Shown here piece by piece: positions 1 to 11,251 of a stretch of 11,251 nt of DNA. The notes beneath the pieces were generated by a model that was not told the DNA's origin, did not search any database, and saw only the letters and a program-made list of their open reading frames with translations. The position numbers and the translations under genes were made by a program. This stretch comes from Candidatus Auribacterota bacterium (GTDB lineage: Bacteria; Auribacterota; UBA6266), in the NCBI GenBank assembly GCA_023136205.1, contig JAGLRQ010000012.1, forward strand, positions 1 to 11,251, read 5' to 3'. The number at the start of each line of letters is the position of its first letter. Position 1 is the stretch's first letter.

Positions 1-8
1 AAAAAAAC

Positions 9-800
9 ATGATTATAATAGGCGAAAAAATTAATACAAGTAGGAAAAGTGTCGCGGAAGCCGTGAAAAACAGGGATGGAGACTTTTTGTCAAATCTGGC
101 AAAATCACAGGAAGAGGCAGGGGCTTCTTACATTGATGTTAACGTAGGGACATTTATTAAAACTGAACCCGAAGATATGGCCTGGGTTGTTGAAACAATA
201 AGTAAAGACCTGAATATTCCTTTGTCTATTGACAGCCCCAATCCCAAGGTTGTTGAATCCGGGCTTGGTGTTCTTAACAAACCCGCGCTCATAAATTCTA
301 TTTCGCTGGAAAAGAAAAGATTTGATGGAATTCTTCCCCTTGTTAAGGAATTTGAATGCCCTGTTATTGCCCTTCTGATTGAAGATGGTAATATGCCGGA
401 TGACACGGCATCGAAAATGAAAATTGCTCATGGCCTTATTGGAAAATTAAAAAATAATGGGATAGATGATAACAGAATTTTTGTTGATCCGATGGTAAAA
501 CCTCTTAGCACAAGCATGGCCGGCCTTGCTGATATTCTTGGCTTTGTGAAGTTATTCAGGGAGAAATATCCTCGTATTCATCTTTTGTGCGGCCTTAGCA
601 ATGTATCCTTTGGCCTTCCCAACAGGGGGATTATTAATAGAGCTTTTCTTGTTATGATGATGATTCTTGGAGTAGATGCGGTTATTTGCAATCCGCTGGA
701 TAAGGAGCTTATAGGGCTTGTTGCAGCTCAGGAAGCACTTGCCGGTAAGGACGAATACTGCATGAATTATATTAAGCTTTCGAGAGAAGGAAAAATCTAA
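9..800 (+). CDS. acsE: Methyltetrahydrofolate:corrinoid/iron-sulfur protein Co-methyltransferase (AcsE-type pterin-binding TIM-barrel protein)
   Basis: 263-aa ORF. The N-terminus MIIIGEKIN matches the (L/I)IGERIN start of AcsE/MetH pterin-binding modules. DSPNP and INSIS motifs are present. The C-terminal GLSNVSFGLPNRGIINRAFLVMMMILGVDAVI is colinear with Moorella AcsE as I recall it ([30 protein letters not shown]). Length matches stand-alone AcsE (about 262 aa). Only 8 nt are visible upstream, so the RBS and promoter cannot be assessed. Confidence 0.85.
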   Translation: MIIIGEKINTSRKSVAEAVKNRDGDFLSNLAKSQEEAGASYIDVNVGTFIKTEPEDMAWVVETISKDLNIPLSIDSPNPKVVESGLGVLNKPALINSISLEKKRFDGILPLVKEFECPVIALLIEDGNMPDDTASKMKIAHGLIGKLKNNGIDDNRIFVDPMVKPLSTSMAGLADILGFVKLFREKYPRIHLLCGLSNVSFGLPNRGIINRAFLVMMMILGVDAVICNPLDKELIGLVAAQEALAGKDEYCMNYIKLSREGKI

Positions 801-806
801 AAAGCA

Positions 807-871
807 GTGAATCGTGAATAGTGAATGGTGAATCGAGAAAAACTATTCACTAAATACGAAATACAATTCAC
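807..871. repeat. GTGAAT hexamer cluster: four tandem 7-nt units plus two inverted copies
   Basis: Tandem units are gtgaatc (807-813), gtgaata (814-820), gtgaatg (821-827) and gtgaatc (828-834). Reverse-complement copies attcac lie at 845-850 and 866-871. Positions 819-828 can pair with 843-852 (10 bp including one G-T wobble, 14-nt loop). Confidence 0.8.
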
Positions 872-879
872 AAGATAGT

Positions 880-912
880 GCGTAGCGTAGCGTAGCCTTC
901 CCGGAGGGGACC
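880..912. repeat. (GCGTA)x3 tandem pentamer followed by a short GC-rich hairpin
   Basis: gcgta gcgta gcgta spans 880-894 and is followed by gccttcccggaggggacc. Within that, tccc/ggga can form a 4-bp stem around a ggag loop. The segment is GC-rich against an AT-rich background. Confidence 0.7.
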
Positions 913-930
913 AGATACTGTCTTTAAAAT

Positions 931-1557
931 ATGCAAAGCGATAAAAGTCAGCTATATCTAAAAGTTCTTGGCAAAAAAATCCCTTTTAAGAAAGGAGAGT
1001 CTTTTAGAGATGTGCTCCAGAAAAATGGGATTGAAATAATGTATCCCTGCGGGGGGGCAGGTCTTTGCGGCAGGTGTGGTATAAAGGTTTTATCGGGAAG
1101 TATCGAACCAACTTCGAAGGATAGAGATAAGTTTGATGAAAAGGATGTTCTATCTGGGTGGAGGCTGGCATGCGGGTCTGTTTTGACTGAAAACACGGAA
1201 GTTTTTGTTCCGCCGGGAAATCTTTTAAGTGAAGAGGAAATAAAGATTTCAAAAACCAGAGATGGTAAAGACGGATTTTTAAACGGTAGTAAGCAAAAGG
1301 GAAAAAGGTTTGTTGCGGGTGTTGTCATTATCACGATATCGGTTTTTTTGGGACAGCCTTTTTTTATCGCGGCTCTTGCTTGCTTCGCGGCAAAAAAATA
1401 TTTCATAGGAGTGGTCTGTTTTGTAATATACGGTATTTCCTGGATTCTTTTGCTATCGGGCATTTACCTTGCGGGTAAGGAGGGATATGTTTTTGTAAAA
1501 AAAAGGTTTAAAAGTTTTTTTAAATTTAAAAAGAAAAGAGTACAACTAAATAAATGA
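931..1557 (+). CDS. Membrane-anchored [2Fe-2S] ferredoxin-domain protein (RACo/AcsV-like N-terminal domain without the ASKHA ATPase body)
   Basis: 208-aa ORF. Residues 1-97 carry YPCGGAGLCGRCGIKV...GWRLAC, i.e. Cys40-x5-Cys46-x2-Cys49-x31-Cys81. This is the ferredoxin module found at the N-terminus of corrinoid reductive activators. Residues about 127-181 (nt 1309-1473) are strongly hydrophobic (FVAGVVIITISVFLGQPFFIAALACFAA and YFIGVVCFVIYGISWILLLSGIYLAG), followed by a Lys/Phe-rich tail. No clear Shine-Dalgarno precedes ATG 931. The stop overlaps the rnc start (ATGA, 1554-1557). Confidence 0.7.
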   Translation: MQSDKSQLYLKVLGKKIPFKKGESFRDVLQKNGIEIMYPCGGAGLCGRCGIKVLSGSIEPTSKDRDKFDEKDVLSGWRLACGSVLTENTEVFVPPGNLLSEEEIKISKTRDGKDGFLNGSKQKGKRFVAGVVIITISVFLGQPFFIAALACFAAKKYFIGVVCFVIYGISWILLLSGIYLAGKEGYVFVKKRFKSFFKFKKKRVQLNK

Positions 1558-2249
1558 CTGTACGGGATTTAACTTACCTGAAATTTGAAGAAACTATCAA
1601 TTATTCGTTTAGAAACAAATCTCTTTTAGCTCTTGCCTTAATACATAAATCTTATAAAAATGAAAATCAGGATGAGGTAGAAGATTGCAACGAGCGCCTG
1701 GAATTTCTTGGAGATTCAGTTCTAGGGTGTGCTGTGGCCGCGGCTCTTTTTAAAGAGTTTACCGATATGGATGAAGGAAGACTCTCATTTCTAAAATCAT
1801 TTGTTGTGTCGAAGAAGGTGCTCGCGTTGGTCTCTTCTGAATTAAATCTGGGAACATTCCTCAAGATGGGGAAGGGTGAGGAGAAAAGCGGAGGCAGAAC
1901 AAGGGAATCTAACCTGGCTAACGGGCTGGAAGCTTTAATAGCGGCTATTTATCTGGACAGCAGTTATTCCGCGGCAGAAGAGTGGATAATAAATAAATTC
2001 AAAAAACACATAAAAGAAGGGATTGATTTTTATAACCACGGCGCGAAAAATGAGCTCCAGGAATTTGCCCAGGCAAAATACGCGGAACTTCCGGTTTACA
2101 CGGTTTTGGATAAGCTTGGCCCCGAACATAGGAGGGAATATATTGTTCAGGTAGAGATAAATGGCAAACTGTTGGGAAAGGGTAAGGGGCCATCAAAGAA
2201 AGAGGCTGAAAGCAATGCGGCTTGTGAAGCTCTTGAAAAACTTAAGTAG
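1554..2249 (+). CDS. rnc: Ribonuclease III
   Basis: 231-aa ORF. The RNase III signature ERLEFLGDSVLG lies at residues 47-58 (nt 1692-1727). NGLEALIAAIYLD is present. The C-terminal dsRNA-binding domain reads ELQEFAQ...GPEHRREYIVQVEINGKLLGKGKGPSKKEAESNAACEALEKL. Length and domain order are canonical. Confidence 0.93.
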   Translation: MTVRDLTYLKFEETINYSFRNKSLLALALIHKSYKNENQDEVEDCNERLEFLGDSVLGCAVAAALFKEFTDMDEGRLSFLKSFVVSKKVLALVSSELNLGTFLKMGKGEEKSGGRTRESNLANGLEALIAAIYLDSSYSAAEEWIINKFKKHIKEGIDFYNHGAKNELQEFAQAKYAELPVYTVLDKLGPEHRREYIVQVEINGKLLGKGKGPSKKEAESNAACEALEKLK

Positions 2250-2478
2250 TATTTTTCCGGTGTTGTGTATTTTAATTGCAGCCCAGGGCTGTTATTTATC
2301 TCCGGAGGAAAAAGGAGAACCTGAGAAAGCGGGAAAAAAAGTTGAGCAGGCTGATGAAGATGATGAGCCGGCAATACACAAGCTTCCCCTGGTAAAAAGG
2401 ACAAAGCAAAAACTTAAAAAAATTTACAATGAAAGAAATAAACAAATAGATGAACAGTTAAACCAGATCAATAATTAA
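2215..2478 (+). CDS. Small secreted protein or lipoprotein (87 aa), function unknown
   Basis: The track ORF is 2161-2478, and I prefer the internal ATG at 2215. aaagagg (SD-like, ending at 2205) lies 9 nt upstream. The product then starts MRLVKLLKNLSSIFPVLCILIAAQGC: a basic n-region, a hydrophobic core and a Cys after AQG (an imperfect lipobox). The remainder is a charged low-complexity tail. It overlaps the last 35 nt of rnc in another frame. Confidence 0.45.
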   Translation: MRLVKLLKNLSSIFPVLCILIAAQGCYLSPEEKGEPEKAGKKVEQADEDDEPAIHKLPLVKRTKQKLKKIYNERNKQIDEQLNQINN

Positions 2479-2482
2479 AAAG

Positions 2483-2538
2483 GGATTAGTGTTTTTTGGG
2501 ATATTAAACCAACGCTAATCCTGGCCAAAAAACTTTTT
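2483..2538 (+). terminator. Possible terminator-like stem-loop after the rnc/small-ORF unit
   Basis: ggattagtgtt (2483-2493) pairs with aacgctaatcc (2511-2521): 11 bp with one G-U wobble and a 17-nt loop. A T5 run sits at 2534-2538 but is 12 nt from the stem. The long loop and distant T tract make this non-canonical. Confidence 0.3.
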
Positions 2539-2579
2539 ATTCCAAACCAATGTCAACAATAGATAACCATAAGCAAATC

Positions 2580-2608
2580 TTGATAAATATAGACAGCATC
2601 GATATAAT
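2580..2608 (+). promoter_or_regulatory. Sigma70-type promoter candidate for the giant gene
   Basis: TTGATA (2580-2585), an exact 17-nt spacer, then consensus TATAAT (2603-2608). It lies in the AT-rich gap between convergently unlinked units. It would give a leader of about 115 nt to ATG 2730 or about 180 nt to ATG 2793. Confidence 0.5.
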
Positions 2609-2665
2609 AAAACGAAGTTTTTATATTAATTGACGTAGATATTATGAAGAAATGCCTTTGATGGC

Positions 2666-2681
2666 CAGTGTGAATACACTG
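2666..2681 (+). promoter_or_regulatory. Small perfect hairpin in the predicted 5' leader
   Basis: cagtgt (2666-2671), loop gaat, acactg (2676-2681): a 6-bp perfect stem. Function is unknown. Confidence 0.3.
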
Positions 2682-2729
2682 AAAAAGATATAGAAAAACA
2701 AAAAAATATGGATAGATAAGGCAATAAAA

Positions 2730-5700
2730 ATGTTTAACTATTGCTTTAACGACACAATAACTGCTGTTAAAAAAAGGTGTTCTAATGGAAAGATGGGGAA
2801 ATATCCCATCTTTTTGTTTTTTATATGGGTGTTTTTACTGGTTTTGCCTGCGAATGTCTACGCTGATTTGCACACATGGGATGGTGATGCAGCTCCTGAT
2901 AACAATTTTAGCACAGCGGCAAACTGGGTGGGCGATGTGGCTCCGGTAGCAGACGACGACGTTACATTTAACGCTGGCGCCGTTAATTGCACACTTGACG
3001 CCTTCGATTTAGACCAGGGTGATTTTACTGTAACCGCCGGCTATAGCGGCACATTTTCTTCCTCTGGAACCTTCCTGTGCGATGCTGTTACCCTGGATTT
3101 GACTAATGCGGCGTGGAGTATATCCAATGAGTTTTATCCGGGAAGAACTGACAACGGTGCTTTGACGATTACGGCGGGAACATTCACAACATCAAACGCA
3201 ATGCAATGCAACGGCGACATTGCCTTAAGCGGCACAGGAACGATAAATCAGAGCGCCTCTTATACGGCTATGATAGGGACTGCCTCAAAGACGATCACCA
3301 ACACGGGCGGTGGGACCATTACCTTTCATAAATTTATGGAAAGCAGTGATACCAATCATGGGCAGGCCGACCCGCATCCTGATGCTAAAACAACTATCAA
3401 TGCTGATATAACAGTGAATAATTGGTGTGATATAAATGGGTGGGCTGTTGCCGGAGACGGTCAGCTAATACTTGCGGCAAATAAGACAATTACTGTTGCA
3501 AACAGCGGCTTTAACAATCAAGGAAGTTTTTCCGCAAATAGCGGGTCACTTGTAAAGGTTGATGACCACATATATTTAAATAGCAGCCACGCCTGGGAAT
3601 TCAGTAATTCAGGCACCTTTGAATGGACCGGCTCAGCCACTAAACAGTTGCGTGGAAATTCAGATAATAGCCTTAATCATTTTAATGATTTTACAATGTC
3701 AGGGTTAGCCGAACTGCAGGCATATTGGGAGGGCGGTGCCATTATCATAGATGGTAACTATTTGCAAAGTAACGGGACATTTTTAGTAGATTATTCAGGA
3801 TTTACGATAAGCGGTACAACGACAATAACAGATGGCATTCTGAGATTCCTGAAAAACGGGACATTAACAGGTTCTGTAATAATAGGTTCCCCGGGAGGAA
3901 CCGGTGAGCTTGAGTTAAAAGCCTCATCTGAGAATCTAACTCTTACTATAGATACTTCTATTACAACTACGAATAGCGGTTTTATTGACGTTGATTGGAC
4001 TGATGGGGTGAATACGGCTACCATAGATGGCGTTAATGGTGATGAAACTATTAGCGGCAACGATTTTGATATAGGCACAAATGGGCAGGTTCTTTATCTT
4101 AGCGATATTGACTGTCAAATTTCCACCGTAACCTTGGGCAGCAACGAACACATTCGACTTTCCGGCGACTGCACCTTTGATGCTATAACATTAAATGGTG
4201 ACGCAAACACAGAGTTTACAACTAACGATAACAAGGCTGCGTGTTCGGGAGGCACGCTTACTGTAACCAGTGGTGTTGTTACTATTTCTGATGGCGGGGA
4301 GATTGATGCTGCCGGGCAGAATGTTTCAACAGCCGCAAATGGCGCCATTACCTTAGTCGGCAATTCTACTTTAAAAGCGGTTAATATTACCAATGCAGGG
4401 ACTATTAATTTGGACCATAACAGCAATGTTATCGATATTACCGGCAATATTGATAACGATAATGCTATTGATGTCGCCGGAACATCTGCCAATATTTACC
4501 TTGAAGGCAACTGGGATAATACGGGCGGTGCTTTTACCTGTGGATCTTCGACGGTAACTTTTGATGGAACTGCCGCTGGTCAAACCCTGACAAGCGATAC
4601 CGAGACTTATAATATCATAACTGTTTCTAATTCTCATGCTGACGGAGTTATCTTCGCGGATGCTTTTACGACCGAGACTTTCAATGATACGACAGGCAAT
4701 AGCAAACTTACGTTTAACGCGGGGGATACCTATACCATAACGGGAGCGGCAGGATTAAACCTTGACGGCGGGGCTGCGGGAAGTGAGATAACTATAATCA
4801 GTGACAGCGCGGGAACACAGTTTATTTTTAATGTTACGGGGGGTTCTCAGACGGTAACATATGTAAATGTAAAAGATTCCGCGGCGAGTACTAACAATAT
4901 AACAGCCAATATTTCAATAAACAGTGGAGGAAATGACGACGGTGATCCTGATCCTCATTGGGTATTTGGCAATGTTACGAGATACTGGGTAGCGGCGGGT
5001 AACAGCGATTGGGATACCAATGCCAACTGGTCATCTTTTTCCGGTGGTGGAGGCGGGGCGGATTATCCCACTGCCGGAGATACTGCTGTATTTGATAATG
5101 GAAGTGACTTTAACTGTACCCTTGATGCTGTTGTGTCTATAGCGGTATTGAATGTTCAATCTGGTTATGATGGGATTATCTCCTGTGGGACTGATAACTT
5201 TACAACGTCGGGCAATATGACTTTATCCGATGGTATATACACAGTTGGTGCGAATATAACCCGGGTAGATGGGACATTAACTGTATCGGGAGGCACCGGT
5301 ACTTTTACCTCGGGAGCAATAGATGCTAATGGAGCGGTTAGTATAACGGGCGGGGAGCTTATTGCCCCCAGCGGTGATTTTAATGTAGCCGCCAATTGGT
5401 CTCATGCCGGTGGGATCTTTACGCATTCAGACGGCACGGTTATCTTTGACACGGCCGCGGTTTCCACCATCGCCAATGATACCACCTTCTATGATTTGAG
5501 TTGTACTACAGCCGGCAAAACAATTAATGTTACTGCTGGAACCACACAAACGGTAGATAATACTTTAACAGTGGACGGCCAGGATTCTGCCACTAAAATA
5601 ACTTTGCATTCTACAGCGGATAATAACAGTTATATCTTAGATTTTCCTGCTGGCTCTCAGACAATAATATATGTTGATTTAAAGGATTGTACAGCGGGGA

Positions 5701-8700
5701 CTACCGCGTCGACGGCTTATAATTCCATTGATTCGACAGGTAATACCAACTGGACATTCCTGCGTGTTGATCCCTACGGTGTAGTTTTTGATTCTGTAAG
5801 CGATAGTCCGATTCAGGGAGCGGTAGTTACCATATATACTTCGGCGGGAGTAGAGTGTACATCCGGTATTGAGATAGATGCCGCGGACACTAATCCCCAG
5901 ACAACCGGAGTTGACGGAGCGTACTCATACAATTGTATAAACGGCGATTATTACATTACAATAACTGCTAATGGATATGCATATCCGACCGCTAAAACAG
6001 ATGCGGAACTTCCTTTCGCGCGAACCATAGTTACCCCGGGTTCCAGGGGAGAAGAATTTACTGTAGCCGGCGTAGTAATAGAGATGGACCATCCGATGGA
6101 TCCTGGAGTTAACCTGCTCACGATAAAAAAGGACGCGAACAAAGAGGAAGCAGCTATTGGTGACATTGTAACTTATACGGTTTCGATAGAAAATGCCACC
6201 GCGAGTGATATCAGCAATGTATATATAGAAGACAAGATTCCACCCGGCTTTAAATATATAGATGGTAAAACGATTTTGGATGGTCAACGCATATCCGATC
6301 CTACGGGTAACAGGCCGCTTACATTTAATATTGACACAGTAGAATCGGGCCAGGCCCGGGCCCTAAAATATCAACTGGTTGTAGGTACCGGAGTAACAAC
6401 CGGTTATTATAAAAATGAAGCGTTCGCGAAATCGGGTGCAAATTCCGTGATCATATCCAATATTGCAACAGAAACAGTTAAGGTCGTTTTTGACCCGCTT
6501 TTTGATTTAGCTGTTGTTATTGGCAAAGTATTCTGGGATCACAATGAGAATGGCAGACAAGATTCGTCGTCCCCCTACGCCCTTCGGGCTTCAAAGGACA
6601 GGCAGTCTACAGTCCACAGTCCACGGACAACAGAGTCAGGGATTGCTAATGTACAGATTGTAATGGAAGACGGTACAATTGTAACTACGGGTAAAGACGG
6701 CAAGTATCACCTGCAGGCCATAATTCCCGGAAGACATCTTTTTAGATTAAATGAAAAAACTCTTCCTGACGGAGCTTATTTAACTACGGATAAAGTTGTT
6801 ATAGCGGATATTACTCCCGGGCTCCTTACCAAGGTAAACTTTGGGGTAACATGTTCTACCCTGATGGACACAGGTGAGTCGCAAGCTATGAGCAGGGCTA
6901 AAGCGCCTTTTGTAGTTGCTCAGGAAAGGTCGAGACCTCTTCCCCGTCTTAATGTTGCCGGTAGACTAAAAATAGAAACCGGTAAATTGAAGGGTGAATA
7001 TGAATTCAGGATTTTTACCAATTATAACTTATTTATAAAGAAATGGACGCTGGAAATACTGGATAAAGATACAAAATGGGTTGTAAAAACATTTAGAGGT
7101 ACAAAAGATAATATTTTTGGCCCTATTTATTGGGATGGTATGACGGATGATAAAGAGTTAATAGTGGATGATCCCGAAAGGACAGGTAAAAATTATGTTT
7201 ACAGGTTAAGAGTAACGGGAGCCGCGAACAAGGAAGATGAAACGTTGGAAAAGGAATTTGACCTCTCAACCAAATATGAAGAATGGTTAGAAAAAGAGAG
7301 CAGGACGAATAATTTAGAAAAACAGACAATTAAAATAAAAGGAGAAACAATAAAAATCCATGGCCTGGAATCTTCAGACAGTATCCGGGTTATGAAATCA
7401 GGCGAGGTTCAGGCTGAGATACCGGTTACAGGAAGCGAAGGATTGGCGGCGAAAGATCTGCTGGAAGGATTTGCGTATGATAAACCTCCGCAGGTTGAGA
7501 TAATTTTACCTGACGGCCGGTATGATATAAAACTTAAATCTGAGAGAGATCAAAATATTGAAGGAAGTATTATAGAACCAAAAACATCAGCGGAAGGCTC
7601 GTCTGTTCCACCTGAAAGTTACTCACAACACATTAAGGTTGGAGATGATTATTTGTTCTTTGTAGGTATGGGGGATGCTAAGGCAGGTTATACTTTTAAC
7701 AGCGGAAACATTGAACCGGTATCGCACGATGATAAATTTAAAGAAGGATTCTGGTATGAAGGTAAATTAGCTTATTATTTAAAAGGGAAAGTTCTTGGTA
7801 AGTTCCTTATTACGTCGAGCCTGGATACCGAAAGACATAAGAAAGAACTATTCAGGAATCTGGATCCAAACAAATACTATCCTATTTACGGAGATAGTTC
7901 ATCGGCTGACTATAAAGCTGCGGATACCCAGGGGACATTATATCTTTTAATTGAATGGGATAAATCCTCGGTTATATGGGGTAACTACAATACAGCTTTT
8001 ACTGATACGGAGTTTGCTCAATTCAGCCGGACACTTTACGGTGGCAAAGTCCATCTTGAGACGACGTCTGCCACGCAATTTGGTGAACCTCATACAAAAT
8101 TAGTTGTTTTTTATGCTGAAGCCAAACAGAAGTCCGCGCATAACGAGTTTACAGGTACGGGAGGATCGCTTTATTACCTTAAAAACAAGGATGTTATTGA
8201 AGGTTCTCAGAAGGTTGAGATAGAAGTCAGAGATAAGATTACCGGCCTTGTTTTAGCTTCAGAGAAAATGAGAGAAGGTTCTGACTATGAGATAGATTAT
8301 GAGAATGGCCGAATTATTTTCTGGCAGCCGTTAAGTTACATAACTGAATCGAATTCAATAATATCTACCCACCTTCTGGATGGCAACCATGTTTATGTAG
8401 TTGTAGATTATGAATATGAAGTGAAAGATTATACTGATCAGACATCTGTTGGTGCTCGGGCTGAAGCTGCACTGGGTGACTATTTAAGTGTGGGTGGGAC
8501 CTATGTTAAAGAAGAGCTGATGGAAGAAAATTATGAATTAAGGGGAGTGGATGCAACGCTGCATTTAGGCAAGGATATAAAGTTAACCGCAGAATATGCC
8601 GAGACTAAAGCGGAGGCAGAGAGGAGTTTCATTTCCACAGACGGCGGGTTAAACTTTATCGAGCTTGCTACAAAAGAAGATACCAGAGGTGAAGCTTACG

Positions 8701-10844
8701 GGTTAAAAGGGGAAGCCCATTTGTTTGATAACAGACTTGGCCTGACCGGTTATTATAAACGGATAGATGATAATTTTTCGACTTCGGCTACAAGCTCGCA
8801 GCAAGGCAAAGAACTTATTGGCTTTGGTTTTGCATATGATATTTTTAAGAGGACAAGGTTAATCCTATCACATGACATCCAGAAATTAATTGATGGCGGT
8901 AATCTTCAGGCCCGGCTCCAGGTTGGCGCAAAGAAGACTGAAACAACCTTGGCTCAGGTTGTTCATGATATGGATAGACTGAAACTAACCGGTGAATACC
9001 GCCATCAGGCGGTAACCGAGCGCAAGAATGAGTTTGACTCTGAAACTAATACTAAAGGCGATATTGTTGCTATAAGAGCGGATTATGAATTGACTGAAAA
9101 AGTAGATGTGTCGTTAGAACAGCAGGCAGCGCTTAAAGGGGAGGCTAATTATCAGACTACAGCTGGTGTTAAAGCGAGGATGTTTGACTGGTTATCTTTG
9201 CGCGGCAAAGGGACTGTTGGCAATGATGGTATTTCCTCGAGTATTGGAGCAACGACTGATGTAAATGACAAGATAAAAATTTCCGGTGATTATACGAGAG
9301 CTGATTATGCGGCAGGAGAAAGCAGTGACTCTGTATCTTTAGGCGCGAGCGCAAAGACGGATGATAAAACTGAAATTCACACTACTTATGCTGTAACTGA
9401 TTCTACTATTGACGGTGAAACCTCATCCCTTACTTTTGGCTCGAAGAAAGAAATGGGGAATGGAATAGAGTTAGTCACAGACAAAACGGTTGCTGTTTCC
9501 GGGGACAAAAAGAGTTATGGTACAGATGTTGGATTGGCAAGAGAAAAAGACGGTAAGAGGTTAGAAGCTACTTTTGGAGAACAATATTCTGAGAGTTCTA
9601 CGGAAATATCCAATTCAAATATCTTCGGTTTGTCAGGCGCCATTAATAATAGATGGGCTGCTGCAACAACTTTTGAACGCGGTATTATCCAGAACCATGA
9701 TGGAACCGAGACGATGAGAAATGCCGGTACTTTAAGATTGGGTTTTGTTGATAAAGATGAAAAAACCGGTGAACTAAAACTTAAAGCATCAACTAAAATA
9801 GAGCTTCGTTTTGACAGAGGGGATGTAAGCAAGAGACAGTATCTTTCATATAGTGCCCTTGAGAGAAAACTTCATCGTGATACAACACTTTTTGCCAAGG
9901 CAAATTTATCCCAGACTAAAGATGTTGCCGCGGATTCGGTTGAAGCACAGTATAAAGAACTGGTGTTTGGAACAGCTTACAGGCCTGCCCAATTTGACTG
10001 GCTTAATCTATTAACTAAATATTCCTATTTAGAAAATGATGCGGCTATTTCACAGGAAGATATTGACGGGATTGAAAAAGAAAGGGCTCATATATTGGCA
10101 GGGGAGGCTGTTATTGATTTAACTCCAAGGTTGCGGTTAACAGAAAAACTTGCTTACAGAATGGGGGAAGAAAGAGTAGCCGGGTTTGATTTTACAAAAG
10201 CCTCAACATGGCTCTGGATAAACAGGCTTGGTTACAACATAGGTGATGGCTGGCAGTTAGCAGGTGAATATAGGATTTTAGGCCAGAAAGAAGCAAAAGA
10301 TCAGAAACATGGTGCTTTGATTGAAATAAACAAAGACATAGGGGATTTTGTCCAAGTTGGTGTTGGATATAACTTTACGGATTTTAACGATGATTTAACA
10401 CACCTTGATTATACTGCCCATGGCCCTTTTGTCAGAATAACAGGTAAACTCTATGAACGTACAAACGAAGAGGTAGAACGCGCTGAACAGAAAAAACTAA
10501 GGCGGAAAATACATCGGTGGACACTGGCGCTGGTTTACGATGTACTGGCAAAGCCCGGCAGTGAAGTTATGAAGGAATTGAATAATTGTTTTTCTTTAGC
10601 CCGTGCCGCGCAAGAGAGCGGGAGATTGGAAGAAGCGAAGAAATATTATAAAAAAATATTATATACTCACGAAATGATATATGATAAAACGGTTAACTAT
10701 ATAACAAAGTGTATTAAGTTAGATGAAAATCTCAGAAGTTATAATAAACTTGTTTCAGAACTTTACAATGAGGGCGGGTTGGCAAAAGTAAAAGAATTGT
10801 GGGCCAGAATAATTACAGAATCCAGGTGGGAGGGAAAAGAATGA
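2730..10844 (+). CDS. Giant secreted surface/outer-membrane mosaic protein (2704 codons from ATG 2730; 2683 from ATG 2793)
   Basis: Uninterrupted 8115-nt ORF carrying several recognisable domain motifs, listed as sub-features below. Start is ambiguous. ATG 2730 has aagg 8 nt upstream. ATG 2793 begins a textbook signal peptide (MGKYPIFLFFIWVFLLVLPANVYA/DL). The stop overlaps the next gene's ATG (ATGA, 10841-10844). Confidence 0.9.
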   Translation: MFNYCFNDTITAVKKRCSNGKMGKYPIFLFFIWVFLLVLPANVYADLHTWDGDAAPDNNFSTAANWVGDVAPVADDDVTFNAGAVNCTLDAFDLDQGDFTVTAGYSGTFSSSGTFLCDAVTLDLTNAAWSISNEFYPGRTDNGALTITAGTFTTSNAMQCNGDIALSGTGTINQSASYTAMIGTASKTITNTGGGTITFHKFMESSDTNHGQADPHPDAKTTINADITVNNWCDINGWAVAGDGQLILAANKTITVANSGFNNQGSFSANSGSLVKVDDHIYLNSSHAWEFSNSGTFEWTGSATKQLRGNSDNSLNHFNDFTMSGLAELQAYWEGGAIIIDGNYLQSNGTFLVDYSGFTISGTTTITDGILRFLKNGTLTGSVIIGSPGGTGELELKASSENLTLTIDTSITTTNSGFIDVDWTDGVNTATIDGVNGDETISGNDFDIGTNGQVLYLSDIDCQISTVTLGSNEHIRLSGDCTFDAITLNGDANTEFTTNDNKAACSGGTLTVTSGVVTISDGGEIDAAGQNVSTAANGAITLVGNSTLKAVNITNAGTINLDHNSNVIDITGNIDNDNAIDVAGTSANIYLEGNWDNTGGAFTCGSSTVTFDGTAAGQTLTSDTETYNIITVSNSHADGVIFADAFTTETFNDTTGNSKLTFNAGDTYTITGAAGLNLDGGAAGSEITIISDSAGTQFIFNVTGGSQTVTYVNVKDSAASTNNITANISINSGGNDDGDPDPHWVFGNVTRYWVAAGNSDWDTNANWSSFSGGGGGADYPTAGDTAVFDNGSDFNCTLDAVVSIAVLNVQSGYDGIISCGTDNFTTSGNMTLSDGIYTVGANITRVDGTLTVSGGTGTFTSGAIDANGAVSITGGELIAPSGDFNVAANWSHAGGIFTHSDGTVIFDTAAVSTIANDTTFYDLSCTTAGKTINVTAGTTQTVDNTLTVDGQDSATKITLHSTADNNSYILDFPAGSQTIIYVDLKDCTAGTTASTAYNSIDSTGNTNWTFLRVDPYGVVFDSVSDSPIQGAVVTIYTSAGVECTSGIEIDAADTNPQTTGVDGAYSYNCINGDYYITITANGYAYPTAKTDAELPFARTIVTPGSRGEEFTVAGVVIEMDHPMDPGVNLLTIKKDANKEEAAIGDIVTYTVSIENATASDISNVYIEDKIPPGFKYIDGKTILDGQRISDPTGNRPLTFNIDTVESGQARALKYQLVVGTGVTTGYYKNEAFAKSGANSVIISNIATETVKVVFDPLFDLAVVIGKVFWDHNENGRQDSSSPYALRASKDRQSTVHSPRTTESGIANVQIVMEDGTIVTTGKDGKYHLQAIIPGRHLFRLNEKTLPDGAYLTTDKVVIADITPGLLTKVNFGVTCSTLMDTGESQAMSRAKAPFVVAQERSRPLPRLNVAGRLKIETGKLKGEYEFRIFTNYNLFIKKWTLEILDKDTKWVVKTFRGTKDNIFGPIYWDGMTDDKELIVDDPERTGKNYVYRLRVTGAANKEDETLEKEFDLSTKYEEWLEKESRTNNLEKQTIKIKGETIKIHGLESSDSIRVMKSGEVQAEIPVTGSEGLAAKDLLEGFAYDKPPQVEIILPDGRYDIKLKSERDQNIEGSIIEPKTSAEGSSVPPESYSQHIKVGDDYLFFVGMGDAKAGYTFNSGNIEPVSHDDKFKEGFWYEGKLAYYLKGKVLGKFLITSSLDTERHKKELFRNLDPNKYYPIYGDSSSADYKAADTQGTLYLLIEWDKSSVIWGNYNTAFTDTEFAQFSRTLYGGKVHLETTSATQFGEPHTKLVVFYAEAKQKSAHNEFTGTGGSLYYLKNKDVIEGSQKVEIEVRDKITGLVLASEKMREGSDYEIDYENGRIIFWQPLSYITESNSIISTHLLDGNHVYVVVDYEYEVKDYTDQTSVGARAEAALGDYLSVGGTYVKEELMEENYELRGVDATLHLGKDIKLTAEYAETKAEAERSFISTDGGLNFIELATKEDTRGEAYGLKGEAHLFDNRLGLTGYYKRIDDNFSTSATSSQQGKELIGFGFAYDIFKRTRLILSHDIQKLIDGGNLQARLQVGAKKTETTLAQVVHDMDRLKLTGEYRHQAVTERKNEFDSETNTKGDIVAIRADYELTEKVDVSLEQQAALKGEANYQTTAGVKARMFDWLSLRGKGTVGNDGISSSIGATTDVNDKIKISGDYTRADYAAGESSDSVSLGASAKTDDKTEIHTTYAVTDSTIDGETSSLTFGSKKEMGNGIELVTDKTVAVSGDKKSYGTDVGLAREKDGKRLEATFGEQYSESSTEISNSNIFGLSGAINNRWAAATTFERGIIQNHDGTETMRNAGTLRLGFVDKDEKTGELKLKASTKIELRFDRGDVSKRQYLSYSALERKLHRDTTLFAKANLSQTKDVAADSVEAQYKELVFGTAYRPAQFDWLNLLTKYSYLENDAAISQEDIDGIEKERAHILAGEAVIDLTPRLRLTEKLAYRMGEERVAGFDFTKASTWLWINRLGYNIGDGWQLAGEYRILGQKEAKDQKHGALIEINKDIGDFVQVGVGYNFTDFNDDLTHLDYTAHGPFVRITGKLYERTNEEVERAEQKKLRRKIHRWTLALVYDVLAKPGSEVMKELNNCFSLARAAQESGRLEEAKKYYKKILYTHEMIYDKTVNYITKCIKLDENLRSYNKLVSELYNEGGLAKVKELWARIITESRWEGKE
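2793..2864 (+). other. Sec-type signal peptide of the giant protein (residues 22-45 of the ORF)
   Basis: MGK n-region, YPIFLFFIWVFLLVLP hydrophobic core, ANVYA c-region with an A-x-A-like cleavage site before DLHTWDG. Confidence 0.75.
2871..4967 (+). other. Passenger module A: Gly/Thr/Asn/Asp-rich beta-helix-like region with conserved head and cap motifs
   Basis: Head: HTWDGDAAPDNNFSTAANWVGDVAPVADDDVTFNAGAVNCTLDA. This is followed by long runs of short T/G/N/S/D-rich beta-strand-like segments. Cap (residues 594-746): NWDNTGGAFTCGSSTVTFDG...GSQTVTYVNVKDSAAS...NSGGNDDGDPDPHWVF. Confidence 0.6.
4980..5759 (+). repeat. Passenger module B: shorter diverged duplicate of module A (protein-level repeat)
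   Basis: Head RYWVAAGNSDWDTNANW...YPTAGDTAVFDNGSDFNCTLDA parallels the module A head. Cap NWSHAGGIFTHSDGTVIFD...GSQTIIYVDLKDCTAG...IDSTGNTNWTF parallels the module A cap. DNA at 4839-4889 versus 5649-5699 is roughly 70 percent identical by eye. Confidence 0.65.
5766..5984 (+). other. Carboxypeptidase-regulatory-like / Cna-B-like beta-sandwich domain
   Basis: VDPYGVVFDSVSDSPIQGAVVTIYT...TTGVDGAYSYNCINGDYYITITANGYAY fits the D-P-x-G-V-V-x-D...P-I-x-G-A-x-V-T-L...G-x-Y...G-x-Y-x-h-x-h...G-Y pattern of this fold. Confidence 0.6.
6108..6479 (+). other. DUF11 ('conserved repeat domain') surface-protein domain
   Basis: LLTIKKDANKEEAAIGDIVTYTVSIENATASDISNVYIEDKIPPGFKYIDGKTILDG fits the DUF11 pattern K-x(n)-G-D-x-V-x-Y-T-h-x-V-x-N-x-G...V-x-h-x-D-x-h-P-x-G. 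It is preceded by the typical MDHPMDP linker. Confidence 0.7.
6513..6848 (+). other. SdrD-B-like / Cna-B-type domain, interrupted by an insertion
   Basis: VIGKVFWDHNENGRQDS[22 aa]ESGIANVQIVMEDGTIVTTGKDGKYHLQAIIPGRHLFRLNEKTLPDG. Outside the brackets this matches the IGKVF-x-D-x-N-x-NG-x-QD-x-GE-x-GI-x-GV...EDG...TD-x-x-G-x-Y...PG-x-H...TLP-x-G pattern. Confidence 0.65.
6567..6632 (+). repeat. 66-nt GC-rich in-frame insertion (SSPYALRASKDRQSTVHSPRTT) containing three tandem 7-nt units
   Basis: About 59 percent GC by hand count, in visibly AT-richer surroundings. Contains ctacgcc, a gccc-ttc-gggc hairpin (6579-6589), and cagtcta/cagtcca/cagtcca (6603-6623). It sits exactly where the family motif expects only x-G between QD and E-x-GI. 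Confidence 0.6.
6990..7244 (+). other. FlgD-Ig-like beta-sandwich domain (tentative)
   Basis: YEFRIFTNYNLFIKKWTLEILDKDTKWVVKTFRGTKDNIFGPIYWDGMTDDKELIVDDPERTGKNYVYRLRVTG fits the W-x-L-x-I-x-D...V-x-x-F-x-G...I-x-WDG-x-x-D...G-x-Y-x-Y-x-L-x-V pattern seen in FlgD-Ig-type modules of surface proteins. Confidence 0.4.
8442..10454 (+). other. Array of about 18 beta-hairpin units: predicted very large outer-membrane beta-barrel (possibly starting as early as nt 7635)
   Basis: Amphipathic strand pairs are joined by short turns recurring every 27-53 residues. Turns seen: LGDYLSVGG, LGKDIKLTA, FDNRLGLTG, FKRTRLILS, MDRLKLTG, LTEKVDVSL, MFDWLSLRG, VNDKIKISG, TDDKTEIHT, GNGIELVT, DGKRLEAT, INNRWAAAT, TGELKLKA, LHRDTTLFA, QFDWLNLLT, LTPRLRLTE, IGDGWQLAG, IGDFVQVGV. 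The array ends with a beta-signal-like strand, GVGYNFTDF...GPFVRITGKLY. Confidence 0.55.
10455..10841 (+). other. 129-aa charged alpha-helical C-terminal extension with a TPR-like motif
   Basis: ERTNEEVERAEQKKLRRKIHRW...ELNNCFSLARAAQESGRLEEAKKYYKKILYTHEM...LAKVKELWARIITESRWEGKE. There is no beta-strand alternation. One motif of about 34 aa is TPR-like (about nt 10566-10667). Confidence 0.5.
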
Positions 10845-11251
10845 AACAGATTATAAGGTTTTTGAGAAAAACTATTATACCGACTATAGTAGTGGTTGCC
10901 CTTTTTGGTTGCGTTCCTTTAAATTATGCTCAGGAAGATTTGAATAAAGATGATATATCCTTTGGAAAAACTAAAACCCGAAATTATACCCTGAATCTAA
11001 AGCAGCTTATAAAGGAGACAGAAAAAAATATAAAGAAGGTTGAAAATGAGATAGAAGAAGGGAAAATTAACGACCGCAATCGGAAAAGAGAAGATGAAGT
11101 CAAAAAACATTTTGAAAAAGGAAATATTCTTCATAAGGAAGGTAAATTAAAGGAAGCAAAAAAAGAGTGGCAGAAAGCATTAAAAATTAGCAAAGACCCT
11201 GAAATGAAAGGTTATATAAAGGAAAGTGCAAAAAGGGCGAAGAAGGAAGAG
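10841..11251 (+). CDS. TPR-like lipoprotein, 5' part only (137 codons, runs off the window)
   Basis: Absent from the supplied track because it has no stop in the window. I translated it by hand. ATG 10841 is preceded by GGAGG (10829-10833, 7-nt spacing). MKQIIRFLRKTIIPTIVVVALFGC has a lipobox-like LFGC with Cys24. It continues without stops through a Lys/Glu-rich helical region carrying the TPR-like motif VKKHFEKGNILHKEGKLKEAKKEWQKALKISKDP (nt 11099-11200). Confidence 0.75.
   Translation, partial: MKQIIRFLRKTIIPTIVVVALFGCVPLNYAQEDLNKDDISFGKTKTRNYTLNLKQLIKETEKNIKKVENEIEEGKINDRNRKREDEVKKHFEKGNILHKEGKLKEAKKEWQKALKISKDPEMKGYIKESAKRAKKEE

Follow-up and report, generated by a model that had tools for sequence, protein, structure and literature searches.

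A predicted giant outer-membrane barrel joined to an adhesin-like front end in a Candidatus Auribacterota bacterium: a candidate self-anchoring surface protein

Architecture of the locus and its C-terminal barrel

We analysed a stretch of 11,251 nucleotides from Candidatus Auribacterota bacterium (assembly GCA_023136205.1, contig JAGLRQ010000012.1, positions 1 to 11,251; hereafter the window), in which a single open reading frame (ORF) at 2730..10844 on the forward strand, the strand of all features of the protein given below, encodes 2,704 amino acids (aa) and fills 72% of the sequence, as a preliminary description of this 8.1-kb ORF had claimed. The protein is identical to MCK4946872.1, deposited under the name 'DUF11 domain-containing protein' from a metagenome-assembled genome (MAG) of Candidatus Aureabacteria/Auribacterota within the PVC (Planctomycetes-Verrucomicrobia-Chlamydiae) group, and a near-identical copy is encoded on a 538-kb contig (locus L084), with housekeeping genes around it. 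From its N- to its C-terminus, the protein comprises a signal peptide, two beta-solenoid modules, a neck of Ig-like domains, a variable region, a very large beta-barrel and a helical tail. On the whole protein, the significant Pfam and NCBIfam matches are only DUF11 and one tetratricopeptide repeat (TPR) in the tail.

The beta-rich C-terminal region of more than 900 aa reported in the preliminary description was delimited to residues 1641-2575 (935 aa; 7650..10454), ending on ...HGPFVRITGKLY, and is predicted by AlphaFold2 (AF2), Foldseek and coevolution to be an outer-membrane beta-barrel of ~38-42 strands. AF2 modelled residues 45-1013 and 1601-2704, the C-terminal run using a 74-sequence alignment, and our conclusions on the barrel draw on the secondary structure and confidence scores of the model, not on its coordinates. 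The C-terminal model (mean predicted local distance difference test, pLDDT, 79.7; predicted template modelling score, pTM, 0.73) displayed ~42 long antiparallel strand elements between residues 1641 and 2575, and the strands are amphipathic with the alternation typical of outer-membrane proteins (e.g., LGLTGYYKRI and WQLAGEYRILGQ). Among the 50 PDB matches listed by Foldseek (E <= 2e-5), 49 are outer-membrane barrels (SlpA, TonB-dependent receptors, LptD, SprA and MtrB) and the sole non-barrel, at rank 4, is the beta-belt of ApoB100. Template modelling scores (TM-scores) to the known barrels were low (0.1-0.27), which is expected because the barrel sizes differ. Fragment scans also gave sub-threshold matches to Porin_4 and OMP_b-brl.

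Closure of the barrel was addressed by mean-field direct coupling analysis (mfDCA) of 244 non-redundant family sequences, a modest depth with ~228 effective sequences for 950 columns. The first strand (1641-1659) and the last strand (2561-2575) were mutual best partners, with a ladder score of 0.679 compared to a 99.9th percentile of 0.446 for non-adjacent pairs, which is the top score among ~820 such pairs, and the coupled residue pairs 1649-2569, 1655-2563 and 1647-2571 fall on one antidiagonal. Such an antiparallel ladder between the two ends is what marks one closed barrel and speaks against two barrels or an open sheet. Altogether, the models and couplings indicate that the C-terminal region forms a single closed outer-membrane barrel of ~40 strands. 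The preliminary description had allowed for two outcomes that would overturn it, namely soluble beta-sandwich repeats in this region or a full-length match to a characterised family. AF2, Foldseek and the coevolution of the terminal strands all favour a closed barrel instead of the former. As for the latter, no characterised family was matched at full length or at the level of the barrel in searches of Pfam, NCBIfam and PDB sequences, including Autotransporter, TonB_dep_Rec/Plug, LptD, SprA and MtrB/PioB, and both sequence and profile searches of the PDB returned nothing for the barrel.

After the third barrel strand, the chain contains a compact beta domain of short strands (residues ~1700-1885; 7827..8384) modelled at a pLDDT of 90-97, which is the most conserved segment of the family and the place where its invariant residues concentrate. 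This segment had no Pfam or PDB sequence match, and it is a candidate plug or clamp. Most relatives end at the equivalent of residue ~2574, on a ...GPFxRxTGKF motif with a terminal aromatic residue; the earlier objection that the barrel does not sit at the extreme C-terminus thus falls away.

A widespread family with fused and split gene forms

A profile of the barrel alone matched 4,592 clusters at 50% identity among 1.84 billion representatives (2,410 of them at E <= 1e-30), so that the protein, far from being an idiosyncratic mosaic as first thought, is one of a family at least this large. Family members range from ~1,000 to 7,612 aa, with 0-6,600 aa preceding the barrel, and the barrel is C-terminal in all 150 members listed. 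A scan of one genome per species identified carriers in at least 581 species, including Omnitrophota, Planctomycetota, Acidobacteriota, Nitrospirota, Campylobacterales and many cultured Gammaproteobacteria, to which plasmid and chromid records add Sinorhizobium meliloti, Phyllobacterium, Vibrio campbellii, Ralstonia and Eleftheria. A model of this barrel is missing from both Pfam (2025) and NCBIfam (2026).

Of 80 loci examined, nearly all have a DUF11-SdrD_B module at a distance of 1.7-2.9 kb upstream of the barrel, either fused to it or in the preceding gene. In about 40 loci, the DUF11-SdrD_B neck and a variable front end are part of the same polypeptide as the barrel, with lengths from 1,500 to more than 4,200 aa, the minimal members (~1,550 aa) consisting of neck and barrel with almost no passenger. 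In about 32 others, a separate barrel gene of ~1,200-1,270 aa follows a giant gene that carries the neck at its C-terminus. This split form was found in many cultured Proteobacteria, where a giant fibrillar-adhesin gene ends in DUF11-SdrD_B(-OmpA), and annotated examples are those of Phyllobacterium (HB779_RS24255/24250) and Eleftheria (N7L95_RS29305/29300). The split barrel proteins carry signal peptides of their own and terminate in ...GKF, ...GKY or ...GFY (Proteobacteria), and in 14 of 21 split loci the stop of the giant gene overlaps the start of the barrel gene by 4 nt.

One or two OmpA-like domains usually form the C-terminus of the split giants (in L045, with a Pfam E of 2.4e-13), and in Eleftheria the OmpA domain sits instead at the N-terminus of the barrel protein. 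The giants carry domains typical of fibrillar-adhesin stalks (DUF7507 x14, DUF11, SpaA, Big_9, cadherin-like and He_PIG); as an example, the giants upstream of the barrel on pSymA of S. meliloti T073 (L085) and in V. campbellii (L086) have stalks of isopeptide domains with DUF7507 x14, DUF11 and SpaA. A fused counterpart is protein P0230, in which eight CLIPPER domains are followed by OmpA and then by the barrel. Note that the split-type barrel proteins share two N-terminal motifs that are missing from the fused window protein, CxGxC...LLFRVRTRGE...NRRVDV, of which NRRV resembles the last strand of OmpA-like domains, and NGG(V/I)(V/I)W(A/V)TEDP. These motifs occur in L055 (~9200-9470), L029, L037, L038, L041, L056, L063, L065, L067, L069, L070, L075 and L080, and may be where the giant partner docks.

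The conserved core of the family begins at the first domain of the neck, as alignments of homologues start at about query residue 1013, and the homologues display clear PF13620, PF01345 and PF17210 matches in the same order. The domain order given in the preliminary description was essentially right, with different strengths for its parts. The CarboxypepD_reg-like Ig-fold domain (residues ~1014-1110; 5769..6059) is weak in the window protein itself (E 0.1-0.2; PF13715 E 0.21), with PF13620/PF13715 precomputed in many homologues. DUF11, also known as CLIPPER, is present as one copy at residues 1130-1235 (6117..6434; PF01345 E 2.5e-11 / 6e-13, TIGR01451 E 6.5e-12), as had been claimed, and is a CnaA-like, isopeptide-type stalk domain. 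In its weak alignment to the CLIPPER crystal structure 9IFR (E 0.22), a Lys and an Asp lie opposite a Lys and an Asp of 9IFR, whose match to the published Lys-715 and Asp-748 is uncertain, and the alignment does not extend over the Asn region. Experiments have characterised CLIPPER/DUF11 as an isopeptide stalk domain found in surface fibrillar adhesins, with a triad of Lys, Asp/Glu and Asn (PMC12617251). The SdrD_B-like domain follows at residues ~1255-1375 (6492..6854): PF17210 (E 7.7e-4) stays below its gathering score here, and the family profile matches the SdrD structure 10ps_A (E 8.5e-7). Within this domain, the loop with the family consensus DxNxNGxQDxGExG contains a Ser/Thr/Arg-rich insertion of ~22 aa, SSSPYALRASKDRQSTVHSPRTTE (window 6660-6730; residues ~1311-1334), which may be why the Pfam score is sub-threshold.

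Between neck and barrel, residues 1376-1640 (6855..7649) form a variable region, and many homologues lack query residues 1373-1615 or have something else in their place. Folded domains of the OmpA, FlgD_ig or Glucodextran_B type occupy this position in relatives, including the OmpA peptidoglycan-binding domain (PF00691) in P0102, P0106, P0114 and P0230. No OmpA match was obtained in the window protein with Pfam, on the whole protein or on fragments. The FlgD-Ig-like domain first assigned to the window protein was likewise undetected in it, and finds its counterpart in homologue P0080 (E 1.5e-4) and in a weak profile match to FlgD (E 0.38).

At the other end of the protein, the signal peptide read earlier is visible in the translation as a Sec-type signal (residues 1-45; 2730..2864), with a long basic n-region, the hydrophobic h-region IFLFFIWVFLLVL and a VYA|D cleavage site. 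It is followed by beta-solenoid (beta-helix-like) module 1, the variable 'passenger' (residues 46-745; 2865..4964; AF2 and Foldseek), and by module 2 (residues 746-1013; 4965..5768; BLASTP and AF2), which duplicates the C-terminal third of module 1. The two copies of a passenger module proposed initially are borne out by this duplication (residues 481-736 compared to 746-1010; 30% identity, E 2e-13 with BLASTP), and the matches to the beta-helix fold are weak. Indeed, AF2 gave the N-terminal ~1,000 aa a solenoid secondary structure of short strands (pLDDT 74.7 overall, 85-93 over roughly the first 340 residues of module 1 and more than 90 at model residues 790-969 in module 2), and the Foldseek matches (E >= 0.02) have right-handed beta-helices at all of the best ranks: PL6 lyases, Ag43, TibA, HxuA and tailspikes. 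This region evolves fast, with only 24 homologues found, and includes a module of ~150-200 aa common to proteins with a type IX secretion system (T9SS) C-terminal domain or a two-partner secretion (TPS) domain. Several Planctomycetota members (P0093, P0095, P0097, P0098 and P0107) start with a PQQ (pyrroloquinoline quinone)/BamB-like beta-propeller instead of beta-helices.

The C-terminal end is marked by the helical tail already noticed (residues 2576-2704, ~130 aa; 10455..10841), modelled as helices at 2579-2698 (model residues 979-1098) with a pLDDT of ~90, and TPR-like (TPR_8 E 5.7e-6). It is missing from most relatives and specific to the Omnitrophota/Auribacterota clade, and since most relatives end at the last strand of the barrel, it is a clade-specific appendage, presumably periplasmic. 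An ATGA overlap links the large ORF to the start of a downstream gene (10841..11251, forward strand) for a secreted protein with TPRs (TPR_2 E 1.3e-5) and a lysine/glutamate (K/E)-rich coiled coil, ~430 aa at full length in L084. Synteny of this gene, raised as a check, was found in 9 of 11 tail-bearing loci and in none of 55 tail-less loci. Its earlier description as a TPR lipoprotein holds for the TPRs, and lipoprotein status is uncertain, as the LFGC box is non-canonical and orthologues have no Cys there. In Omnitrophota, the partner reaches 1,700-2,070 aa (L005 13277-19495, L006 10678-15864 and L009 13519-19386) compared to ~430 aa in the Auribacterota organism; the repeat arrays of these proteins are of very low complexity, and the L084 copy has an assembly gap within the repeats.

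Comparison with known systems and interpretation

By their defining features, the giant-barrel protein falls outside type Va, Vb and Ve secretion, TonB-dependent receptors, LptD, SprA, MtrB and SlpA. It resembles type Va autotransporters (e.g., Ag43 and pertactin) in combining an N-terminal Sec signal, a beta-helical front and a C-terminal barrel in one polypeptide, with a variable passenger and a conserved barrel; the signal peptide is evident in the translation and the solenoid in the AF2 model, with weak fold matches that include Ag43 and TibA. In contrast, its barrel has ~40 strands and 935 aa compared to 12 strands and ~280 aa in type Va, PF03797 was not matched at E <= 1 on the whole protein or at E <= 5 on fragments, and no helix that could serve as the type Va pore linker was predicted in model residues 1-40 before strand 1 (low-confidence coil in AF2). 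The conserved three-domain Ig-like neck between passenger and barrel, with OmpA in relatives, and the natural two-gene version further distinguish the family from type Va. For type Vb, the TPS domain (PF05860), POTRA and the 16-strand Omp85-type barrel were unmatched both in the window protein and in the split pairs of L055 and L045. For type Ve (intimin/invasin), in which an N-terminal LysM domain and barrel precede a C-terminal Ig-like passenger, no IAT_beta match was found and the domain order is reversed, the barrel being C-terminal in all members listed. Plug (PF07715) and the 22-strand barrel (PF00593) of TonB-dependent receptors were unmatched in Pfam and NCBIfam, with Foldseek TM-scores of 0.10-0.27, and LptD, SprA and MtrB-PioB (26, 36 and 26 strands, compared to ~40 here) gave no Pfam match and structural TM-scores of at most 0.27.

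Other large-barrel systems share more with the family. SlpA, of the SlpA/OmpM-type connectors, is the best structural match (8ae1, E 4.6e-9) and also combines a large C-terminal barrel with preceding periplasmic linking domains and, in some members, cell-wall binding. It differs by its 30 strands, a TM-score of 0.21-0.23 with 9% identity, and an S-layer homology (SLH) domain and trimeric coiled coil that only SlpA has, whereas adhesin-like N-terminal regions characterise the window family. SLH was unmatched in the window protein, and helices appear only in the C-terminal tail within the modelled regions. SprA (Sov) is alike as a very large single-chain barrel able to pass folded domains, and T9SS adhesins with adjoining PorP/SprF-type barrel genes are alike in placing a giant adhesin beside a dedicated barrel. 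Both differ from our protein in that sequence similarity is lacking (TM-score ~0.2 across 2,000 aligned columns), that the window protein carries no T9SS C-terminal domain and that further T9SS genes are missing from its surroundings.

The closest precedent for the barrel itself is a superfamily of 38- and 40-strand outer-membrane barrels predicted computationally (Solan, Pereira, Lupas, Kolodny, Ben-Tal 2021, PNAS, PMC8346858), which resembles ours as a single-chain barrel above any solved size, with a closing contact signal and no assigned function, a likeness by strand number and predicted contacts. The window barrel agrees with its 38-42 strand elements and the first/last-strand ladder as the top non-adjacent pair. 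The parts of that paper available to us make no link to fibrillar adhesins, to a DUF11-SdrD_B neck or to a fused/split organisation. Three 38-strand barrels were also predicted in D. radiodurans (PMC9388160), and the 2021 prediction paper and this SlpA paper were the only literature on 38- to 44-strand barrels that turned up. On the side of the adhesins, a description exists of a Gram-negative adhesin whose C-terminus carries an OmpA-like anchor (A. silvestris B9T28_05395; Costa et al. 2025, PMC12617251). A protein search for its locus with an 82-aa stretch taken from the 9IFR alignment, aimed at any barrel gene behind it, returned no match. The split giants share with such proteins a variable/adhesive tip, an isopeptide stalk and an OmpA-like end, and the CLIPPER domain of the window protein occupies an equivalent position; the window protein differs in having no OmpA domain and in being covalently fused to a barrel. 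That paper does not mention an outer-membrane partner (the terms 'outer membrane' and 'barrel' do not occur in it). A coupling of giant barrels to fibrillar adhesins, a conserved neck or the fused/split organisation was not found described in the literature, and a preprint on giant genes of Omnitrophota does not describe the barrel family. There is a substantial chance that what is seen here is a distinct pathway.

We favour, with a probability of roughly 0.55, the reading that the protein is a self-anchoring surface adhesin or fibre carried by a dedicated giant barrel, following autotransporter-like logic outside all type V classes. This is close to the self-anchoring giant surface protein of no nameable class that had been suggested at the outset: a closed barrel without a characterised family is what we obtained, and the surface exposure of the N-terminal part is what we infer. 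The last strand of a barrel assembled by BAM, the machinery for beta-barrel assembly, ends in the periplasm, and since strand 1 runs antiparallel to the last strand, the N-terminus of the barrel should be periplasmic as well. With both barrel ends facing the periplasm, the domain just before the barrel would be periplasmic, which fits the OmpA domains found there in relatives. The N-terminal part would be threaded outward through the very wide lumen, ~6-7 nm by a geometric estimate from the strand number and so wide enough for Ig-like domains, and the neck domains together with the conserved inserted domain may occupy or plug the pore and hold the fibre. In the Omnitrophota/Auribacterota clade, which has no peptidoglycan-binding OmpA domain, tethering to the envelope may be provided instead by the periplasmic TPR tail together with the co-inherited TPR/coiled-coil protein. 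Passage of the chain through a dedicated barrel would most simply account for a periplasmic base combined with an extracellular stalk, and both the CLIPPER/DUF11 stalk domain and the N-terminal module common to T9SS-cargo and TpsA-like proteins support an extracellular front end.

A wider proposal extends this reading to an unrecognised outer-membrane display and anchoring pathway, in which the ~40-strand barrel, of greater width than any single-chain barrel solved, would pass a folded, isopeptide-stabilised stalk, the DUF11-SdrD_B neck would hold it, and either an OmpA domain or, in the Omnitrophota/Auribacterota clade, a TPR tail with a coiled-coil partner would tie the base to peptidoglycan. 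Fused as well as two-gene versions would be spread over many phyla, among them Omnitrophota, Auribacterota, Planctomycetota, Acidobacteriota, Nitrospirota and Alpha-, Beta- and Gammaproteobacteria; here the odds, in our estimate, fall somewhat short of even. If our reading holds, the family would provide the missing outer-membrane component by which giant Sec-exported adhesins with a periplasmic OmpA-like anchor cross the outer membrane, give a biological role to the largest single-chain beta-barrel class predicted so far and, with thousands of protein clusters, stand beside type V secretion as a non-homologous counterpart. For the uncultured Auribacterota bacterium, the same reading would imply a major surface structure to which a large part of the coding capacity is devoted. 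Since carriers include the cultured and genetically tractable Stenotrophomonas, Lysobacter, V. campbellii and S. meliloti, the hypothesis is directly testable.

Several points weigh against the display of the front end. Topologically, the simplest reading places everything N-terminal of strand 1 in the periplasm, and both an extracellular location of any part and the placement of neck and inserted domain relative to the lumen are proposals rather than observations. The minimal members with almost no passenger mean that the function of the conserved core needs no displayed cargo, and the BamB-like PQQ propellers at the N-terminus of some relatives could be periplasmic. No energy source or translocation signal was identified, and strands 3 and 4, which flank the inserted domain, showed no coevolution with each other in mfDCA.

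The main alternative, which we consider unlikely but by no means negligible, is that the protein resembles SlpA or OmpA in function, either as a connector from the outer membrane to the cell wall or as a major structural component of the outer membrane. Its whole N-terminal region, with the Ig-like neck and the OmpA or other domains, would then be periplasmic and would link the membrane to peptidoglycan or other envelope layers. The structural match to D. radiodurans SlpA, a 30-strand barrel with a periplasmic connector, speaks for it, as do the OmpA domains directly before the barrel in relatives, the members reduced to neck and barrel, and the resemblance of the tail and its K/E-rich coiled-coil partner to a periplasmic spacer. 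Carboxypeptidase-regulatory-like domains, moreover, are periplasmic in SusC-type receptors. Yet front ends of 2,500-6,600 aa made of isopeptide stalks, cadherin/Big_9 repeats and beta-helices are typical of extracellular fibrillar adhesins (PMC12617251, PMC9210967) and hard to fit in the periplasm, the window protein has neither an SLH domain nor a coiled coil, and its similarity to SlpA is limited to the TM-score and identity given above. Clearly less probable still is a role as a gated giant channel or translocon through which other substrates, such as large polymers, proteins or nutrients, would pass, with the inserted domain as plug and the N-terminal domains as substrate-binding or regulatory appendages rather than cargo. 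A barrel larger than the 36-strand SprA, the T9SS translocon, with SprA, LptD, TonB-dependent receptors and MtrB among its fold matches, a highly conserved compact domain after strand 3 and the 'TonB-dependent receptor' names given to some homologues would all suit such a channel, but the sequence signals of Plug, TonB_dep_Rec, LptD, SprA and MtrB are all missing, ExbBD-TonB genes adjoin the system in 1 of 88 loci, and no cargo or accessory genes are conserved across the family. In addition, strict fusion or translational coupling to one adhesin-like protein suggests a dedicated partner.

Two further explanations concern the nature of the barrel and deserve very little weight. The C-terminal region could be an open or soluble beta-rich repeat array for which AF2 over-predicts a closed barrel, a view that can draw on the fact that the barrel was judged without the AF2 coordinates, on the low TM-scores to known barrels, on a pLDDT below 50 at model residues 604-702 and on several adjacent strand pairs without coevolution signal. 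We regard it as highly improbable, given that the ladder of the terminal strands tops all ~820 non-adjacent pairs, that 49 of the 50 listed fold matches are membrane barrels, that split barrel proteins have signal peptides and a terminal aromatic residue, that Porin_4 and OMP_b-brl appear below threshold, and that 38- and 40-strand barrels were predicted independently (PMC8346858). Even less credit goes to a divergent classical type Va autotransporter or two-partner secretion protein. The order of signal peptide, beta-helical passenger and C-terminal barrel would fit the one and the existence of a two-gene version the other, whereas PF03797, the TPS domain, POTRA and Omp85 are unmatched, ~40 strands replace 12 or 16, the prediction shows no helical linker ahead of strand 1, and periplasmic-type OmpA domains stand between passenger and barrel in relatives.

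Regulatory sequences, annotation and neighbouring genes

The 'own strong promoter' assigned to the large ORF corresponds to a sigma-70-like candidate, TTGATA-17-TATAAT (2580..2608, forward strand), which matches 11 of 12 consensus positions; on the other side, promoter-like sites are no commoner in this region than in shuffled sequence, and the claim holds as a consensus match only. Inside the 5′ end of the ORF, a terminator-like 15-bp hairpin with a T-run (2784-2818) sequesters an internal ATG (Met22, 2793-2795) and the preceding GGAAAG; it could be an attenuator or translational control element, or chance.

Across the family, no accessory genes were found conserved, the neighbours being clade-specific (two-component system, DUF11 or Glucodextran_B proteins, and housekeeping genes). 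In about ten loci of different phyla (L019, L024, L028, L036, L042, L045, L061, L067, L074 and L082), the barrel gene is followed 1-3 kb downstream by genes for an OmpR-type response regulator and a HAMP histidine kinase. Eleftheria encodes a FecR-domain protein and a CHASE2 protein, along with a response regulator, upstream of the system. Such neighbours are hints of a dedicated regulation of the system.

Note that RefSeq annotation with PGAP (Prokaryotic Genome Annotation Pipeline) names several barrel homologues 'TonB-dependent receptor' (including HB779_RS24250, L087 13740-17576) and one 'outer membrane protein transport protein'. Such labels are probably mistaken, since the family members scanned gave no Plug or TonB_dep_Rec signal. 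A TonB dependence, prompted by the labels and by the one locus adjoining exbBD-tonB, was therefore rejected. A barrel-only homologue of 949 aa was also observed in a MAG labelled Bacillota (L073, 9761-12610), with no DUF11-SdrD_B module within reach, and may represent a diderm Firmicute, a binning error or a stand-alone barrel form.

Upstream of the large ORF, the window contains genes for a pterin-binding (CdhD-like) protein (9-800) and a 2Fe-2S ferredoxin-domain protein (931-1557), followed by RNase III. The 3′ end of the RNase III gene is overlapped by a small K/E-rich ORF (2161-2478; called as 87 aa at L084 9486-9749), a putative gene whose sole family match is a faint GA-like domain (E 0.037). 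On the long contig, the upstream genes are part of a housekeeping block (RF-1, PrmC, EPSP synthase, Ffh, ribosomal proteins S16 and L19, TrmD and RNase HII) that is unrelated to the giant-barrel protein.

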